NCBI RefSeq assembly: GCF_035594765.1
Contig: NC_085845.1
Location: forward strand, 171,942,897 to 172,006,896
Direction of reading: 5' to 3'
Source: Anolis carolinensis
Lineage: Eukaryota
Length of the DNA: 64,000 nt
Under the pieces are notes generated by a model. That model was not told the DNA's origin, searched no databases, and worked only from the letters and a program-made list of their open reading frames with translations. Position numbers and translations under genes: made by a program. Shown in pieces: positions 829 through 57,780 of the stretch; position 1 is the first letter of the stretch, and each line of letters opens with the position of its first letter.

Positions 829-1699
829 CTGAGAGAGATAAGCATGAAAACAAAAGAAGGTAGGTGAGGAGAAGGGAGAATTAAGCACATATACATTTTA
901 TTTGTAATATTTCTTCAATGACTTATGGTCTAATGGATCTTCTACCTTACTGGATTTTGCAGGCAGGAACAAACTCAATTTGTGGAGCCTCACTGCAAGG
1001 GCAAATGTGGTGGAACTGCAGATGAAAGTCAAGCATAATATTCCTAACCATATTTCTCTATAATGTTAAAACTGGAGAGAATTGGTGAACAGGAAGGGAC
1101 TTCTGCCATCTATCAGATCTCATTGGCAAGTATTGTTCCCCAGTTAGGTTCAAGATCAGAAGCTATCCCAGTCGTAGGAAATGACAATCCAGAGCAGGAT
1201 TCTAATTCCTTGTCATCCCCCTTCACCTCTTTATTAACACACTGATTCATTCATATTTATATCCTGCCCTTCTTTCTTTATGACATTCAAAGCAATAAAG
1301 TGTTCTCAAGCCAAGCAGTACTCAAACCCAGCCTTGTTCCAATTCAGCAATATTATTCAATTATATATCCTCACATCATACCCTGCGGCTTTTGCAGGGG
1401 AGACTCAATGGATGTGGGATGTTTTATTTGTCTCCACTTCCACCAACTCTGCTCCAAATGCAGGTTTGGAAATATGAGGTTCTCCCCTAAATAAAAGACA
1501 AAAGCTTACTGTGGAACAGCAAGGGAAGACAGTTTCCACAGTCTTGGGCTCACTGCATAATTCAGAACTGGTATATCAATTACACAACTGACATCTTATT
1601 GAGCCTCACCACAGTACTGTCACTTTTTCATTTATTCTTGAAACATAGGCTCTCTGCAGAACTAAACTGTACATTGAAACAGTGTTAGATAGAGAGACA

Positions 1700-2310
1700 G
1701 CTGAAGAACAAGAAGAGACCTCATGATCCTTCCAGTCCAACCCCCTGCCAAGAAGCAGGAAAATCACATTCAAAGCACTCCCAACAGATATACAGACTTT
1801 CTGTATATATTTCAGATTTTAATATTAATGTCAAAAACATGTAGTAAGCATAGGGTTTGTGTTACAATAGAACAGTAAAGACAAAGCCTCCAAAGAAGGA
1901 GTCTCCACCAGTGCTGAACAGCTCTCACAGTGAGGAAGTTCTTCCTGATGTTCAGGTGGAATCTCCTTTCCTGTAGTTTGAAACTTTTGTTCCGCATCCT
2001 AGTCTTCAGGGTAGCAGAACACAAGCTCGCTTCCTCCTCCCTATGACTTCCCCTCACATATTTATACATGGCTATCATGTCTCCTCTCAGCTTTCTCTTC
2101 TGCAGGCTAAACATGTCCAGCTTTTTAAGTCGCTCCTTATAGGGCTTGTTCTCCAGACCCTTGATTCTTTTAGTTGCCTTCCTCTGGACACCTTCCAGCT
2201 TGTCAAAATCTTTCTTAAATTGGGTGCCCAGAATTGGACACAGCATTCCAGGTGTGGTCTGACCAAGGCAGAATAGAGGGGGAGCATGACTTCCTTGGAT
2301 CTAGACACTA
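1700..2310 (-). mobile_element. CR1 LINE 3' fragment
   Basis: Overlapping minus-strand ORFs give CR1 ORF2 C-terminal motifs (LYSALVRPHLECCVQFWAP; KLEGVQRKATK; LRGDMIAMYKY; RKNFLTVRAV). Boundaries approximate. Confidence 0.9.
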
Positions 2311-2765
2311 TGGAAATGTTGTGAATGACACAATTCCATCCCCATTGTTGATATGTGATTCACCTACACCAGTCCAATTAATCTATGAACATGAAATAAG
2401 GAAAGGAAATACCTTAGGCATCAAAATATCTTTGACCACCTGGGGAGTTTTACATGGACTGCAAATGAAAAGGACAATAACACTCTATATCCTATATCCT
2501 TTTCCAGAATCTTTCATCGAAATATATAAGGATGTTTTGAATATATCTTGGAAAGTTGGCAATGTGAAAGGATATTTTAACATATGTGGTGGATGTGCAA
2601 AAAAGTGAAAAAAATATCAAGTTAAAATACAAGCCCTGATTCCAAGATTTTCTAAAGTTATTATTCTAATGACATTCACTTCAGTACATGACAAGTGCTG
2701 CAAGATTGTTATATGCACTGAAGTCAAAGAATGTAGAAATACCAACAAAGGTTGTTGAAACTTAC

Positions 2766-2862
2766 AGCCTCTGAGGATGCCTGACATAGATGTGGGCAAA
2801 ACATCAGGAGAGAATACTTCTGGAACATGGCCATACAGCCCGGAAAACTCACAGCAATTCAG
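2766..2862 (+). mobile_element. Penelope-like element terminal fragment (decayed hammerhead motif)
   Basis: Matches the repeat that at 51916-52377 follows a GIY-YIG C-terminal coding stretch. CTGAGGA is kept but GAAA has become AAAA. Confidence 0.75.
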
Positions 2863-4225
2863 TTGTTAAAACCGATGGACTTGTCTGAGATGGATAAATT
2901 AACTTGTTTGATTTAGGGAGACACAACTGATTCTTTTTTAAAGGACTATGAGCCTTTTAAAGACTTTTGGCATAAAAAGAGCATGCGCTGATAATAATTT
3001 GGTTTGACAATAAGTAGAATTTGAATTTTGGGAGAAATGTAAGAAGTAGAAGTATCAAGGGAAAGGCTGAATAGCATATAAGTTTATAGCTGCCAAGAAA
3101 AATGCTGGATGTCATTTTATGTTGTTGTTGTTTGTAGTGAGTTTTTAATGTATTTTCTTTCCTGTGTGGTATGTTTCTTATTTAGTTACTATTGAATAAA
3201 ATTAATAACAAAAACAAAAGACCTGTGTGGGAAGGAATAATACGTTTTGAGTGACAGCAGTTCAAAAGAGCGATGGCTGGTTGGTTATCTTATGTTCACT
3301 CTTCCCACTCTACTCCAACTCAGTAAACAGGATTTGCAGGTTACCTTTTGTTTTGAAATCCTGCAAAACTAGTTACACCACCAGGACAAAAGAAATGTGT
3401 GGGTACACTGCAAGAAACAAAAACTCTCTCCAGCTAATTTCAATTTTTTTAAAACTTGGTTTTCTGATTCCAACCTAATAAGCGGCCAATGAGCAAATGA
3501 GCAATGCCATTATCACACATACATAAGAAAGCACTTCAGATAATAATTTTAGAACAATAGGCATGTAAGCCTAACAGCACTTACAAAAATAACCTTTAGC
3601 AATCTAAACATTGAATGTGTTAATACAGGCTGCAGTTCCTGAAAGCTTTTGCCAAAGAAATACTTATTGTTTAAGATGCCATAAGATGCAATGCCATTTT
3701 GATGCAATACACTAGTATAGCTAATTCTCTGTCCAGAAACTACATTGTGCCGTGCACTTCATAGACCAAGGTCTATTAGATTGGCTGCATGACATATATG
3801 TCAGAAATAGTATAAACATAGGATATTGAGAAAGATTGAAATCAGGTTTTTCACCTATTTGCATTGCATTTAGACTACAGTAACAATTACTAATATTCAG
3901 TATTCATATAGTTCTTGAAGATGCTTTCTTTCCTCCACCTGAACAATCCTTACAAGAGATGTTGTGAACCCCATCTAAGCCGGCGAATATGGTTGGATAA
4001 CTTTCACTTGTTCAAGCACAAATGAAAGAAACTTCATGACCAATTATGGCTGTAATTTTATTTTTTTGCAAAGAAAGAGACAATCAGATATAACAAGACT
4101 GTTGTTGTGCCGCCTAATAGCCGTTGAATTCAGAGACAGTGGTTTAAACATAAAATAAATCTAGATGATGATAAAAGTAGCTGCTAGAAGACCAGGTTGG
4201 CTTTTTGATGGGGGAAAGGAGAACA

Positions 4226-43475: not shown

Positions 43476-44730
43476 CAAAGCTAAATAACTTGTACTACTC
43501 CTATGATTCTATAGTATTCAGTCATAGCAGATAAAGTAGTGCCATACTGCATTAATTCCTCAGTGTGGGTGCACTCTGAGTTGACCTGGAGGCACACAAC
43601 CACAAGAACTATGCAGTGGCATGTGAAAAGATGGGTAAGAAGGGGGTCTGCATGCTTGAAGTAACCCTGTGTATTTTGAGGTGTGGTTCCCTCTCACTGA
43701 TGGTATGTTTTTTTCCACTAACAGTTCAGCTATTGAGACAAAATAGTTTCTCCCCTAAGACACACATGCCACTCCTTTATATTGCAATATTACCCTCAAT
43801 AACCCATCTCATTGTTGTTATTCAATATAATAAGAAATAATTTAGAAAGACAGCTTGGGCATGTTGTTCACTGTGCAATACTACTGTGGTTAGATTTGAT
43901 TAAGGCTAGATTTGGCATCTGCTTATAAAATGTCTTGTACATACAGTTCCTCAGATACAAGAGCAGACTGAACCTGCCCCCTGCACAGCAATGCCAATTT
44001 TCATTGACGCCAGGTCTGCTCCTTCAATTACAGCAGTGTGAGACAGAGCCCTTAAGCAAATTGCATTTTCCCACCACTTATTTGTATATCAGGAAAAGCT
44101 GCTTCTGTGGGATGCTCATGTGGTTGGTTGCTGTTAATGCACAACAGTAGAGCTGGTATAAGCCAGCAACCCCTACCCCATGAATTCCTTGGCAGAGTTT
44201 GGAACATCTTGAAAAAAGGCAGGATAAAAAAGTGATTAAAATAAGTAAATAATAAATAACATTAGTTTTTTTAAGTCACATACCAAAATTAGAAAAGCAT
44301 GGGTGGTAGACTCTGGAAACTAGCCCCCAAATGTAGGTTTCTTAGGCATACTGGAATACACTCAAAAACCAGAAGCCCAAAATCCAACAAACAGTTCAAG
44401 TTCTAATTATACACTAATTCTTAGATTTTCAGAGATGATTAAATTGTATCATAGAATGTAGTTCTGCTACAAATAGCCTTCCTTCGGTGGCCGTTTTTGA
44501 AATGGAATTAGAAAAAAAAAAAGACTTCCAATTAATAAGAAAATTAATTGGAAGTTAGCTTTTCAGTAAAATACCTGATTTCCAAATTAGGATAAACAAA
44601 CTTTAAAAGCAGGTGTTTGTAATTCAAACAGGAAGTGTTACCTGGTGTAAGGGTTAGAAAATATCACAAAAAGTGAGGAATATGTGGCCTTGTAGATCTC
44701 TCAATTGGCTATCTATTTCAGGCTTCAATG

Positions 44731-44875
44731 TTAACTCTTCTTTTGGCAAATGGAAAGTAGTACTAAATTTTAATTAAGGCATGGTGTATTTTCTTAATCT
44801 AGACAGGCTTAAGGAAGTACACCGTGCCTTACTTTGCCTTCAGCGCTATTTTCCATTTGCCAAAAGAAGAGTTAA
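44731..44875. repeat. 145-bp foldback palindrome bounded by TTAA
   Basis: Outer 26 bp are perfect reverse complements; inner 23-bp arms differ only by transitions. Confidence 0.85.
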
Positions 44876-45897
44876 TAATTCATTGCTGATCCTCTATCAC
44901 TCTCAATTAATGCAGTTGTGATCTACTTACACAGAATAATCCATCGTGCCTTATCAGAAAATTCTAAATCAGTGGATGATACAACTCTGTCACATCTGCT
45001 AATGTGGCTACATATTTTGCATCCTACAAAATATAATTGGGATATTATATTGTTGTATGGGTTTTATTTCCCAGTGCAAACCTGGTAACATTATTGTTGT
45101 GATTGCTGAGGCTTTTGTCCCACTCTAAGCTTTATTTCTCTTCTTTAGCCCATTTCCCAAATGAACATTCATTTAATAGCAACATGCCCAGGATAGACTT
45201 TGGCTTAATATTGTTGGTGCAAATTACTTCACAGAAATGCTTGTTCAAAGCTGAGGACTAGGTGACCCTTCAGACGTTGTTGAACTCCAGTTCCCATTAG
45301 CCAGACCAGCGTGATGACCCTGGGGTGGTAGTTAATTGACATTAACAGCCTCTCACATATGTGCTAAATAACAGTCAAGTTAATAAAAAAGGCCATTAGA
45401 AACATCTTCTAAACAAACCTTGCCAGGAAAACCCCACCATTGTGATAGGTCTGAGCATCCATAGCTTTTGGTATCCACCAGAGTAGTTAAAAGTCTAAAA
45501 TAGTACAGGGAGAGAGACATGCTATCCATTTAAAGGTAGATTGTATCTAATAATCAGAATAATTAGTACGGTGGGCCCTTAGTATCTGCTGAAATTTGAT
45601 AATAGGATCTCCAGTGAATACCAAAAGCCAAGGATGCTCATCAATGTAACGATTATACTAATTATTATTTTATGAGATACAATCCACTTTTAAATAAAAT
45701 GGGCAGGTCATTTTTAAAAACTTGTTTCAAAATCAGAGGAGGACTTCTGGCCATTTCATTTTTGCCAGTCTATGAAACCACCATAGGGTCTCAAGGAAAA
45801 GGAAATCAAACAGAACGCAGTTGCCAAGTTTGGGTTAAAACTAGGTCAGGTTTCATGAAAGAACTGTCAACATAAGAAGGTTGCACCATTTGTCTGT

Positions 45898-46923
45898 TTA
45901 TCTCATGTTCTTAATAATGCTGGAGATCACTGAAAGGTAGAGTGCAAGGAAGACAGCACAGGTGGCCTTGATCCATTTTACTGCTGAGCTGTTCTGTTGC
46001 ATAGACAAACATTCATTCTTCATTCTGATGTTGTCCTGAAATCTTACATGCAGAGGGATATTGGTGAAGTCCAAGCCATACCTGCCAAGTCCACTGACAA
46101 TGTATTCTGTGGCCACGACAAACTGAAGTGCAGCAAAATTTGAAGGTATGTCTTTGTGAACAGGAATGGCAGGACCCTTAAAACGTCTGCTCAAGGGGAT
46201 GCAGGTATGTGGGAGGATGCAGGTGATGTCCTCTGAAATGCTCTCTTTGCAGGTTGGGCGCCTGTCTGGTGTGCACCGGTAGTCAAAATGTTGGGTCAGT
46301 ACATACTTCACTACTCGCACTGGCAAGCAGAAAGCTTCTCGAGCTCCATCGAGAATTCCTAGAAAGAGTGTAGTAGCTATTTGTTTCATGATTGGTCGTA
46401 ACAAAGTCTGGTAGGCTTCACTGTTCTCTTGAAGAAAAGGATGTGTGGAGTGGTGGAGCCCATGCCATGCAGAGGAAACAGTTGGCAAAGTTCCTCGTTT
46501 CAGGAATGAAAACAGTAACTTGAGAATCCATTTGGCAGCACAATATTGCAAGGCACTCACCAAATTAAAACCAACCTTCCTTACAGCTGCCCAAGAATGC
46601 TGTAGGATATGAACCACTGGATCTAGCATTTCTCTTCTGAGCTTCCTAACAAGAATTAACTGCAAAATACTTGCTATCTTTAGACTGAAGTAGCACAGGA
46701 TGACAATCCTAGTCACATTAACAGTGACCAAACAGGAAACCACCCTGCCTATGGTGAAGAAAAGGTGCAGCATTGGCTTATAGACTTTGACAAAAACAAA
46801 AGATATCAAGAAATAGAATACCATGAGCTGGGTTAGGGGCAGCCTCAGTGCCTGTTCAGCCATGTGCATGATAATTTGCTTTCCAAATGGTTGGTAAACT
46901 GCAAGGCCTTTATTGCCCAGCAT
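45898..46923 (-). CDS. Uncharacterised 341-aa ORF, probable membrane-associated orphan protein
   Basis: 1026-nt open frame in repeat-free sequence; ATG with A at -3; in-frame stop 7 codons upstream; hydrophobic segments near both termini. No family recognised. Confidence 0.6.
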   Translation of the reverse strand: MLGNKGLAVYQPFGKQIIMHMAEQALRLPLTQLMVFYFLISFVFVKVYKPMLHLFFTIGRVVSCLVTVNVTRIVILCYFSLKIASILQLILVRKLRREMLDPVVHILQHSWAAVRKVGFNLVSALQYCAAKWILKLLFSFLKRGTLPTVSSAWHGLHHSTHPFLQENSEAYQTLLRPIMKQIATTLFLGILDGAREAFCLPVRVVKYVLTQHFDYRCTPDRRPTCKESISEDITCILPHTCIPLSRRFKGPAIPVHKDIPSNFAALQFVVATEYIVSGLGRYGLDFTNIPLHVRFQDNIRMKNECLSMQQNSSAVKWIKATCAVFLALYLSVISSIIKNMR

Positions 46924-48885
46924 TTTGTTGATGTAGGACCCTTAGATGTAAAGCCACTAATGTCTTTCCTTCTCTTCCTTTCATGCCCAAGCACCTGGTT
47001 TGGCACCATCCTTATATGACTAGGAAGTGTCACAACAATTGATTGCATCAGAAAGAGGGATAAATATGGTCATCTCCAGGTAGGAAGTCCAGGTTTTGTA
47101 GGACATCAGAAACATCTACACATCAAAAGCCATGATTCAGATCCAGTTATTCCCTTCATTTCCACATAGAGGAATAGAGGTTGTATGAAAGCATGGATAG
47201 TGATAAAGGGAAAGATGTTGTGTAAGAATGAAAGCTACAAGATACCATAACTTCATTTTTTAGTTATTCTGTCTCACTTTAGCATAAAGATGACACTGCT
47301 CATTTGCCCAATTATTGTAAACCAACAGAAGTATGCAGTTTCACAAAGGCTAGAGACGTATCCCTTCTCTGTTTTTCTCTTTTTAAATATTTATTGCGTT
47401 TCTCAACCCCAGACAAAAGGGATGATTCTGTTTTAGATTGTGGGAAAAATCACAGCCATATAATCTTGCTCTTAAGAACTGACACTCCTGACTGTTGAGA
47501 TACTATCTATATCTGCATATCAGATCCTGGTGACTAACAGCAAGAAAAGGCTGCTTTTTTTGTCCTCTTCATGTAAGCATTCCAGGAGCATGTAACTGAC
47601 TTTTAATGGGGACAAGGGAGGAGAGAAGTATCTTCCTGGGAACACTGTTATAACCTGAACACACCAAGTTTGTTTGATTCAAAAAGGTAAGGAAGGGTGC
47701 ATCTGGTTAATATTTGGAAGGAAGATCAAGTAACACTAGGAATCTCCTGGTAGGGCTAGGAAAGAGCCTTACCTAAATGCTACTGAAAGTTAGAACTAAC
47801 AAAATTGGGTTAGATAGACAAATAATCTGACTAAGTACAAAGCAGGTCCCTCAAAATTCTGATCTCAGATACTCACTCTGGGAGAGATGTCAATAAAGGG
47901 GCAGGGCAATATTTTTCTTTCTACTCGCCTCTTTATACTGTGAATAGATTCAGAAAGATAATGTGTTATGACAATTTCCCCTTAAACAACAAAAGCATTA
48001 AAAAACAATAACATTTATTCAGAGTACTTTATTCAACAGCAAAGCCGGAAGGTACAGTGTGTTTGAAAAAGTTTCTAGAGTTTAGAAAATATAAGATGCA
48101 GAGTTTATTTTAAACGTTTCAAAATGTTTATTAAAACATAAGAGTTGCATTTATTGTAGAAAATATGGGGTCTGAACTATATAACTACGTCTAAAAAGAG
48201 TTATTTATAATCTCAAATTCTTCTATGATTAAACAAAGGAAAACTCACAAGCTATATTCTTGCGTTCAAGCTCTCACACAAGACTAGAGAGAGACACGCA
48301 GGATGCATTTTGGGGGGCTTAAAACAAAAAGGGGCATACAACCTGAGAATTATATTCTACATAATCAATGAGATTGAGGACGAAAGAGATAGTGAGAGAA
48401 GACACAGACAACAGGCATTAAGTAATGGGGGGAAGGGATTCCATTAGCCTAACTGGTTTTCTGTCTATTTGTTCCCTCACTGAGGACTGTAGACTTGAAC
48501 ATATGTGGTTTAACTCCCAATACAATGCACATATAGCATGGTATATGAACATTGGACTAAGGGTGCATATACACTGTAGAATTAATGCAGTTTGATACCA
48601 CTTTAACTGCCACGACTCAAAGCTATGAAATTGTAGGTTTACAAGATCTTCAGCCTTCTCAACCAAAGAGTATAGCGCCTTACCAAATAACATGACAACT
48701 CTTTGGCAGAGATAACTAAAGACCTTGTAAAACTACAGTTCCCATGATTCCAGGGCACTGAACTATGGCAGTTAAAATGGTGTCAAACTACATTAATACT
48801 ACAGGGTAGATGCAGATTATGACTCTGGAAAAGTCTGAATACCCTCTCGGTCATTAAAACACAATGGGGTTGGATATACAATGCC

Positions 48886-48940
<55 letters not shown>
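48886..48940. repeat. (AAT)n microsatellite at an L2-like tail
   Basis: Tandem AAT run seen directly. Confidence 0.9.
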
Positions 48941-48942
<2 letters not shown>

Positions 48943-50175
48943 TTTATTTTATACCCTGCCACCATCTTCCCGAAGGGACTCAAAGCATCTTACATGTGGT
49001 ATCAAGCCCAGATCATACAACACAATTTACAGCTAAACACAATTAAAAACATAATAACATATAACAGTCTAATTAAAACAGTTAAAACAGCAGGGTATAA
49101 AAACACCATAAAAGTATATCAAACCAACCTCAACAACCATACAATCCAGTATCTGATCCCACATTATTTGCTTTGAACCGGATTATATGAGAACACTGCC
49201 ATATAATCCAGTTCAAAGCAGATAATCTGGGATCTGTTGTCGAAGGCTTTCATGGCCGGGATCACAGGGTTGTTGTATGTTTTATATGGCAGTGTAGATG
49301 GTGAAGTAATTTCAACCATCTGTCTTACTGAGTTGCCTGCAATAACTCTATTAGACAAATGTTTTCAAATATGTTCATGTATTTCTTAGTGTAAATTGTT
49401 TTTATATGTTATTGTCTTACATATGTATATTGTTTTGTATTGTCTTTTATATAATGTTTTGAGCTACTTTGGGTCCCGTATAGGGAGAAAAGTGGGATAT
49501 AAATGAAGATTTATTATATTATTATATAATGGGGTCTGGGTAACCTTGGGAAAGTCACACAATCCTAAAAAAACATGATAGGTTCCCATTGGGATTACCA
49601 TAAATTGGAAACAATTTGAAGGCACCTACTAACAACAACAAAGCTCATACTTTCCCCCTTCCTAATCATAGGTTTTTGCGAAGAGTATGCCTTAGGCTGA
49701 CTTATGCAATAATTGAACTAGAGGAAAGGCAAGAGACAAAACTGTTTGAAACCAAACCACACCTTGCTTTCATAGGTCTGTCTCTCTCCTCCTCCAGGAA
49801 CTTTGGGAAACAAAGCGAGGGAACTGCTGTTCTGAAAAAGCTGGCAAGTGGGAAGGACATTGAGGCTACAAGAGCAGGTTAAAGAGAGCAGTGGAAGCTC
49901 AACTGTAAAAGGGAACTTTAATGTCCATCTACAAAAGGCAGCAGCAGATACAAATCCAATGCTGCAAGGAGGAGGAAACCTTGGAATATACAGTCCCATG
50001 TATACAACTTGCAAGTAAGCCCCACTAGCCATGTGGGAGGGGATGGAATAACAAAAGAAAGAGAACTCTAGAGATATGTTTACATATCTTATGCATTTTA
50101 AACACTTAAGCAGTGAATCATACAGGTTTAGTATCCTTTATCTAGTACCCCAAATTCCAAAATACTCAAAACTCT

Positions 50176-51158: not shown

Positions 51159-51161
51159 ATG
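51159..51161 (+). CDS. RPL3: Ribosomal protein L3 (uL3) exon 1 (ATG only)
   Basis: ATG immediately followed by GTAGGT donor; exon 2 starts with Ser2 in phase 0. Confidence 0.9.
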
Positions 51162-52968: not shown

Positions 52969-53277
<309 letters not shown>

Positions 53278-56721: not shown

Positions 56722-56815
56722 GCTGTTCAGTGATGAGATCATGGAATATGCACTGGGCACAGTGCCTGATAATAAATGAGGAGTCGTTCCATGCTGCCTT
56801 CCTTCTGAGACCAGC
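56722..56815 (+). ncRNA. SNORD83: Box C/D snoRNA U83 (guide for the 18S rRNA Am468-equivalent)
   Basis: Stem GCTG/CAGC (extends to GCAAAAGCTG/CAGCTTTGC); C box GTGATGA 56730; D' CTGA 56766; C' ATGAGGA 56776; D CTGA 56805; guide TGCTGCCTTCCTT complementary to 18S AAGGAAGGCAGCA. Confidence 0.92.
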
Positions 56816-57372: not shown

Positions 57373-57742
57373 CAGGGGTCCCCAAACTTTTTAAACGGGG
57401 GGCCAGTTCACGATCCTTCAGACAGTTAGAGGGCCGGACTATAGTCGGCCACCGAGCAATAATAATAATAATTATTATTATTATTAATAATAATAACAGC
57501 AATAATAATAAAAAGAGTTGGAAGAGACCCTTTGGGCCATTGAGCCCAATACCCTTCTGCCTTTGTGCACTGAAAACACAAGCAGAGCACCCCTGACAGA
57601 TGGCCACGCAGCCTCAATGTTAATAATAATAATAAAGAGGGTTGGAAGAGACACTTTGGGCCATTGAGTCCAACCCCCTTCTTCCTTTGTGCACCAAAAG
57701 CACAAGCAAAGCACCCCTGACAGATGGCCACCCAGCCTTAAT

Positions 57743-57780
<38 letters not shown>

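Follow-up and report, generated by a model that had tools for sequence, protein, structure and literature searches.

A fast-evolving, single-exon gene between SYNGR1 and RPL3, apparently common to reptiles and mammals, that likely encodes a male germ-cell membrane protein

The minus strand of the window, as we call the whole 64,000-nucleotide stretch of DNA analysed here, carries between SYNGR1 and RPL3 a single coding exon of 341 amino acids (P0001; 45898..46923, ATG to TAA) that is almost certainly a real protein-coding gene. On the evidence of sequence comparison, the gene is single copy, has one coding exon and is common to reptiles and mammals, and it founds a new, apparently amniote-wide family; the kind of gene would be a familiar one, fast evolving, intronless, and associated with testis and membranes. 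We lean towards reading its product as a fast-evolving membrane scaffold of spermatids, anchored at the C terminus. Our confidence is firmest for the status as a gene, which the data establish, and falls in turn through tissue, topology, acylation and organelle to role, all of which we infer. A preliminary description of the window had proposed a gene not described before, with one coding exon and probably a membrane protein as its product, and that proposal is supported.

Counted from stop to stop, the open reading frame (ORF) spans 347 codons and is, as had been noticed at the outset, intact and the longest in the window, where 19 frames reach at least 120 amino acids and the runner-up has 235 codons. 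It shares its strand with SYNGR1, the first exon of which lies near 35650, and RPL3 follows on the plus strand with its usual start codon at 51159. The encoded protein has a pI of 9.8, is hydrophobic and is predicted to be mostly helical. The original claim that neither repeats nor low complexity explain the missing stops also stands: no tandem repeat overlaps the ORF, the ORF is not of low complexity, and its DNA is single copy in the host genome, G000, by a DNA search that skips very common words. Under an independent-codon model, such an ORF has a probability of 6.5e-9 per start, in keeping with the rough estimate near 1e-9 made before, and of 4.4e-5 per window; none of 40 order-2 and none of 40 order-4 Markov windows reached 347 codons, the maxima being 254 and 226. 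Scaled to 1.85 Gb, however, the per-window chance corresponds to about one such frame per genome, and the length of the ORF alone is therefore a lead and not a proof; the proof is supplied by conservation.

A word search recovered one relative, 48% identical over the whole length of the ORF, and an exhaustive search of 1.84 billion representatives gave six matches, five of them at E below 1e-30. The reptile clusters matched contain hypothetical proteins of Crotalus, Ophiophagus, Naja, Phrynocephalus, Gekko, Sphaerodactylus and Caretta, and a profile made of the reptile relatives reached mammals, namely Diceros, Equus, Pteropus, Rousettus and Phyllostomus together with many unnamed entries. For full-length, frame-intact relatives, identity to the window protein is about 50% in snakes and other lizards, 39% in the sea turtle and 23–28% in mammals (rhino, equids and bats). 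The link between reptiles and mammals, which split over 300 million years ago, is independent of any mixed profile, because separate profiles find each other: a reptile-only profile scores all eight mammal proteins (E 5e-47 to 6e-27) and a mammal-only profile all seven reptile proteins (E 2e-36 to 5e-11). In a tree of 20 selected proteins, the squamates, the squamates with the turtle, and the mammals are each fully supported, with 6 of the 17 inner branches unresolved, and the turtle and rhino proteins each match only the window ORF in G000. The suggestion that the gene is lineage restricted has thus to be dropped, with relatives present in squamates, a turtle and laurasiatherian mammals.

The database entries of the family (Equus asinus LOC106836910, Pteropus LOC120602800, Diceros HPG69_017650, Rousettus HJG63_010361, Phyllostomus HJG60_010047, Caretta CAM2097972.1, Crotalus NXF25_012929, Ophiophagus L345_09652, Naja E2320_004045, Phrynocephalus JRQ81_016246 and Gekko K2H54_074625) are homologous over their full length or most of it and are likely orthologues; all are labelled "hypothetical" or "uncharacterized" and belong to no Pfam family. 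The term "undescribed" is correct for the literature, where a full-text search returned no paper for five member identifiers and no description of the gene (supplements, possibly listing LOC identifiers, were outside its scope), and incorrect for the databases, where relatives are already listed. Primates, rodents, birds, crocodilians, amphibians and fish have no protein among the named matches, which in a lossy search is no evidence of absence; the profile search that yielded the mammals missed two known cluster representatives (P0003 and P0016), and most members are unnamed. Similarly, the lossy sequence searches gave no relative outside amniotes, and the relatives had no loci in viral contigs, in a scan that needs near-exact peptides, or in metagenome contigs.

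The frame has stayed open where a neutral sequence would have closed. In a neutral simulation, none of 400 copies was still open at 56% identity or less, with 7–12 stops expected, although indels are left out of the simulation, and the stop-codon test is flattered by databases that contain open frames only. The replacements themselves are less telling: the fraction with a positive score is 0.30–0.34 among snake relatives vs. about 0.26 ± 0.04 under neutrality, and 0.18–0.24 among mammal relatives vs. about 0.20–0.22. The amino-acid replacements are only slightly more conservative than neutral ones, which argues against strong constraint. Hydrophobicity by column correlates at 0.60 between reptiles and mammals over 327 columns, and the majority residue is common to the two groups in 62 columns; judged from these alignments, the protein is one that evolves fast yet keeps its length, its C-terminal end and its hydrophobic pattern. 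A chance open frame, lying in a conserved non-coding element or arising as a by-product of a neighbouring promoter, could draw on the expectation of about one such frame per genome by length, on the weak signal of conservative substitution and on the enhancers described for mouse stem cells in the Rpl3–Syngr1 interval (10.1101/2022.07.18.500456), but we regard it as extremely improbable given that separate reptile and mammal lineages keep the frame open over its whole length at 23–54% identity and that the hydrophobic pattern is conserved.

Some mammalian copies are broken. In P0026, 60 residues match a close relative, after which 124 of 129 residues fit another reading frame (the next best offset fits 42 of 129), and six members of one mammalian cluster stop at an identical early position; P0022–P0026, P0066 and P0071 are truncated or frameshifted mammalian members. 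The common early end in the cluster suggests a true loss in one mammalian lineage, and single contigs may be errors. The broken mammalian copies mean that some lineage can do without the gene, and many testis genes are described as having no knockout phenotype (PMC12917576). The broken copies and the near-neutral substitution spectrum, together with the derivation of the tissue from one marker in three runs, would also suit a genuine gene for a membrane protein that is expressed more widely than in germ cells, or a gene that is now nearly dispensable and whose frame is maintained by weak selection. We hold this to be improbable: the length and the C-terminal end are the same from lizards to bats, the majority columns common to both groups number 62, and all three ORF-containing runs tested carry acrosomal mRNA.

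The alternative first suggestions, a diverged retrogene or an endogenous viral ORF, gained no support from searches for a parent, a further copy, a Pfam domain or a viral fold. The protein, like its DNA, is single copy in G000, where the second match (E 0.04) has stops and no family-profile score; the one genomic copy and the lack of a reverse transcriptase or transposase domain in Pfam do not characterize a transposable element, and no long direct repeats flank the gene. The best Pfam match of P0001 has an E of 0.12, in agreement with the early observation that reverse transcriptase, transposase, gag and env motifs are missing; scans of 8 and of 51 members gave nothing better than E 0.03. A viral, transposon or retrocopy gene domesticated in an early amniote and still source-like, for example as a fusogen, would explain the single exon, the long hydrophobic helices and the failure to find relatives outside amniotes. 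Nevertheless, we consider such an origin very doubtful: the gene is single copy, three query proteins found no parent in G000 (though a remote parent could be missed), no Pfam family came below E 0.03 in 51 members, no viral model matched at E 0.001 or better in Foldseek with what is a weak query model, and long flanking direct repeats are missing, with the proviso that a source diverged for more than 300 million years would escape such searches.

The position of the gene appears to be conserved on the side of SYNGR1. The 565-residue protein P0035, which clusters with Equus proteins, consists of residues 1–309 of the equid relative (97% identical) followed by synaptogyrin-1 sequence, the latter with a MARVEL domain (E 1e-25) and 85% identity to the SYNGR1 exon of the window; it lacks the last helix of the relative. 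From this fusion it follows that the gene lies upstream of SYNGR1 on the same strand there, as in the window, and this one fused equid-type model implies a conserved position beside SYNGR1, on that side at least. P0035 is either an annotation artefact or read-through splicing. It is also what invites the view that the ORF serves mainly as a 5' coding exon in a long isoform fused to SYNGR1, a reading to which we attach little credence: P0035 is one computed model and drops the conserved C-terminal helix, stand-alone equid entries of 334 amino acids exist, and four lizard contigs lie wholly on the ORF region without any spliced part. The human RPL3–SYNGR1 interval is not known to contain a protein-coding gene, and the single paper found to name the pair reports nothing but enhancers between the mouse genes (10.1101/2022.07.18.500456).

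Those contigs come from four of the eight ORF-containing runs guessed to be RNA; they represent three studies, were selected for containing the ORF, and reveal the shape of the transcript, not its prevalence, strand or level, with the minus strand taken from the conserved frame. In all four (X1, X16, X17 and X18), one unspliced contig covers the ORF and little else, without differing letters or gaps; the individual extents, one per run, are 45845–46983, 45884–46964, 45883–46978 and 45877–47027, and the widest extent is 45845..47027. Three of the four contigs end at 45877–45884, and the ends 45883–45884 recur in two studies, 13–14 bases past a GATAAA (45897..45902, minus strand) that shares bases with the stop codon; with U/GU-rich sequence following the contig ends, this motif is a candidate variant poly(A) signal, and the recurrent ends are a weak hint of a 3' end. 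The minus-strand AATAAA at 45131–45136, pointed out in the preliminary description, is present in the sequence, but the RNA contigs end about 710–750 bases before it; we set it aside as probably not the poly(A) signal used. No contig of the four runs covers the region 43761–45065. A splice acceptor near 46940, just above the ATG, was considered and rejected because all four contigs cross it unspliced. A 24-codon upstream ORF in another frame (46910..46984, minus strand) overlaps the start codon and may or may not fall inside the mRNA.

Testis had been named as the sensible first tissue to look at, and the RNA runs agree with that choice. Spliced Sp38/ZPBP mRNA (joint 1455 to 4108) is present in all three of the ORF-containing runs tested, one per study, and the spliced joints identify X1, X17 and X18 as RNA. 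ZPBP and ZPBP2 are described as acrosomal matrix genes found in bird testis (PMC7647744). Because these runs carry spliced ZPBP-family mRNA, we consider expression in male germ cells likely, a judgement drawn from one marker gene in three runs of unrecorded tissue. Run X23, with 0.00 of the ORF's words, had no contig on two ZPBP-family exons. As a separate observation, an intron of a ZPBP-family gene contains an 82-base minisatellite of 13.6 copies (L008 4820–5937; G000:C6).

The sequence around the 5' ends has the look of a promoter different from that of RPL3. A TATA-like CATATAA (47012..47018, minus strand) lies some 30 bases above the contig 5' ends at 46983 and 46978 and may serve as a TATA element; the CpG observed/expected ratio around it is 0.0, i.e., CpG free, vs. 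0.95 at the usual RPL3 promoter. Head-to-head with the new gene on the plus strand stands an alternative, single-copy RPL3 first exon (47152..47686), which starts at 47152 in the contigs of both X17 and X18, about 125–190 bases from the 5' ends of the new gene. A contig of X17 joins 47684 to 49796 with GT..AG and continues onward into RPL3 exon 2; the second alternative exon, also single copy (49798..50014, plus strand), is spliced on to exon 2 at 53050, and X1 and X18 likewise continue from 49798–50014 into it, with a loose end in X1, X17 and X18. X1 also has a weaker joint from a donor near 47221. The alternative transcript bypasses the exon with the usual start codon and, lacking an in-frame ATG upstream of exon 2, would be non-coding, shortened or begun at another codon. 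An N-terminally extended RPL3 made through the alternative exons was rejected, there being no in-frame ATG and stops upstream.

The alternative RPL3 exons occur in runs that also carry acrosomal mRNA, and we infer a germ-cell promoter common to the new gene and the alternative RPL3 transcript. Everything combined, the locus would house an old amniote gene for a sperm membrane protein of a new family, a gene that reptiles, horses, rhinos and bats have retained and that primates and rodents have lost, hence its want of a name. It would be driven by a bidirectional germ-cell promoter of which the other product is an RPL3 transcript without the normal start codon; as a whole, this combination is speculative and rather unlikely to hold in every part. 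If true, a single switch would yield a protein for the building of sperm and at the same time alter the output of RPL3 in spermatids. Separately, the alternative RPL3 transcript in its head-to-head position offers a lead on how ribosomal-protein genes are controlled in germ cells.

The features of the protein make it very probable that it is membrane anchored. All 15 family members measured are basic, with pI 9.2–10.6, and hydrophobic. In the window protein, hydrophobic windows at residues 30–48, 52–70, 73–91 and 319–337 match the segments first placed at about 33–92 and the C-terminal hydrophobic helix, the quoted motif of which begins at residue 320; the middle, then called rich in His, Cys and Pro, is at residues 145–260 composed of 6% His, 4% Cys and 9.5% Pro, such that an enrichment exists but is mild. 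Residues 30–91 (46651..46836, minus strand) form three hydrophobic helical segments split by Lys/Arg and are predicted to be embedded in a membrane or to lie along it. Residues 320–338 (45910..45966, minus strand) are by hydropathy and alignment a predicted C-terminal transmembrane helix, which is present in 17 of 19 aligned proteins, the remaining two being truncated models; the 20 residues before it have a net charge of +3 to +6, and 0–3 residues follow it. At its start, Cys322 (45958–45960) is invariant in all 17 and is the only well-conserved cysteine; the aligned family has no conserved glycosylation site or cysteine pair.

The helix at the extreme C terminus, with a tail of 0–3 residues, resembles that of tail-anchored proteins; these are, however, single-pass, and with its further hydrophobic segments at 30–91 the family may not belong to them. 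With a hydropathy of 1.8–2.7 and a charge of 0 to +2, the tail falls between mitochondrial and ER values, the mean charge of tail anchors being given as +1.12 for mitochondria and +0.21 for the ER (PMC5450235).

Long helices at about 15–144, 163–216 and 312–340 are common to two structure predictions, both of them poor models (pLDDT 53 and 55, pTM 0.21 and 0.28), and amphipathic periodicity reaches p<0.05 in 1 of 13 segments. Comparisons place the protein in no known family: NCBIfam gave no family in 19 members, neither Pfam nor NCBIfam indicated a recognisable catalytic family, and the ESM Atlas, queried with two members, returned no usable match, which shows neither absence nor novelty. With the weak models, the best Foldseek match in the PDB has an E of 2.0, and the best VIA-align result (Z 7.8, rmsd 6.0, 131 aligned; models of pTM 0.21–0.28) reflects generic long helices. 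In the PDB, the family profile matches no sequences but those of the TOG domain of yeast Stu2 (4u3j and 2qk1; E 0.0016–0.0028 for the whole chain); kinship was rejected, as separate stretches score E 1.7 and 20 and the profile finds no further TOG protein, which leaves a match of helical composition.

How such a protein may act can be outlined from these features. A CpG-poor promoter near 47000–47150, apart from the CpG island of RPL3, would fire in germ cells and give a 1.1-kb mRNA with very short UTRs. By the positive-inside rule, a basic flank faces the cytosol; the basic stretch before the last helix would thus be cytosolic and so would the bulk of the chain. Juxtamembrane cysteines are commonly palmitoylated, and Cys322, at the membrane edge, may be so modified. 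The long hydrophobic basic helices (15–145 and 163–216) would lie in or along the membrane or pack against a partner membrane protein, and the resulting scaffold would hold or shape an organelle membrane during the building of the sperm. S-palmitoylation is described as important in the shaping of spermatids (PMC11912386). We find a non-enzymatic structural or adaptor role in spermiogenesis somewhat more plausible than its negation, by analogy to TEX38 (PMC11912386), FAM209 (PMC8627553) and SSMEM1 (PMC7401026), non-enzymatic membrane proteins of the testis that in spermatids bring a partner or an organelle into place. Like them, the family has a transmembrane helix, in our case by hydropathy alone; the Pfam scans indicate no sequence relation, and the likeness is one of analogy, not of pairwise comparison. 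The three were described from mouse knockouts, whereas the family has no named mouse or human member among the matches.

A different use in the sperm, as a surface or acrosomal-membrane protein for egg recognition or fusion that changes fast under sexual selection, would accord with the rapid divergence (about 50% identity within squamates, 23–28% to mammals), the broken copies in some mammals, the co-occurring ZPBP-family mRNA and the mammalian N-termini, where a short Leu run after basic residues could be a signal. We think this unlikely: without a conserved N-glycosylation site and with one well-conserved cysteine, there is no sign of a disulphide-bonded outer domain, the pI is 9.2–10.6, and the basic side of the last helix, by the positive-inside rule, puts the bulk of the chain in the cytosol.

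Whatever its exact role, a gene that predates the split of reptiles and mammals and for which we found no name, family model or paper marks a gap in the catalogue of amniote genes; a plausible cause is that the gene is missing or unannotated in the usual model species. It is also a test case for the retention and loss of sperm membrane proteins, being intact in squamates, a turtle, equids, a rhino and bats and broken in at least one mammalian lineage; if the gene builds part of the sperm, its presence and loss may track differences in sperm form.

The surrounding sequence has some further features. Just past the 3' end of the gene are inverted repeats at 44731–44875, 45452–45640 and 45528–45695, comprising one pair of 67-base arms, 11 bases apart and 82% identical, and two interleaved pairs with arms of 32 and 26 bases; they are possibly old miniature transposons. 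The sole Rfam match in the window is the snoRNA U83B at 56722–56815 (plus strand), within RPL3. Tandem units at 37514–37836 and 57501–57759, in two copies each of 151 and 124 bases, are similar in sequence, are bounded by AAT/AAC microsatellites and look like one short repeat family.
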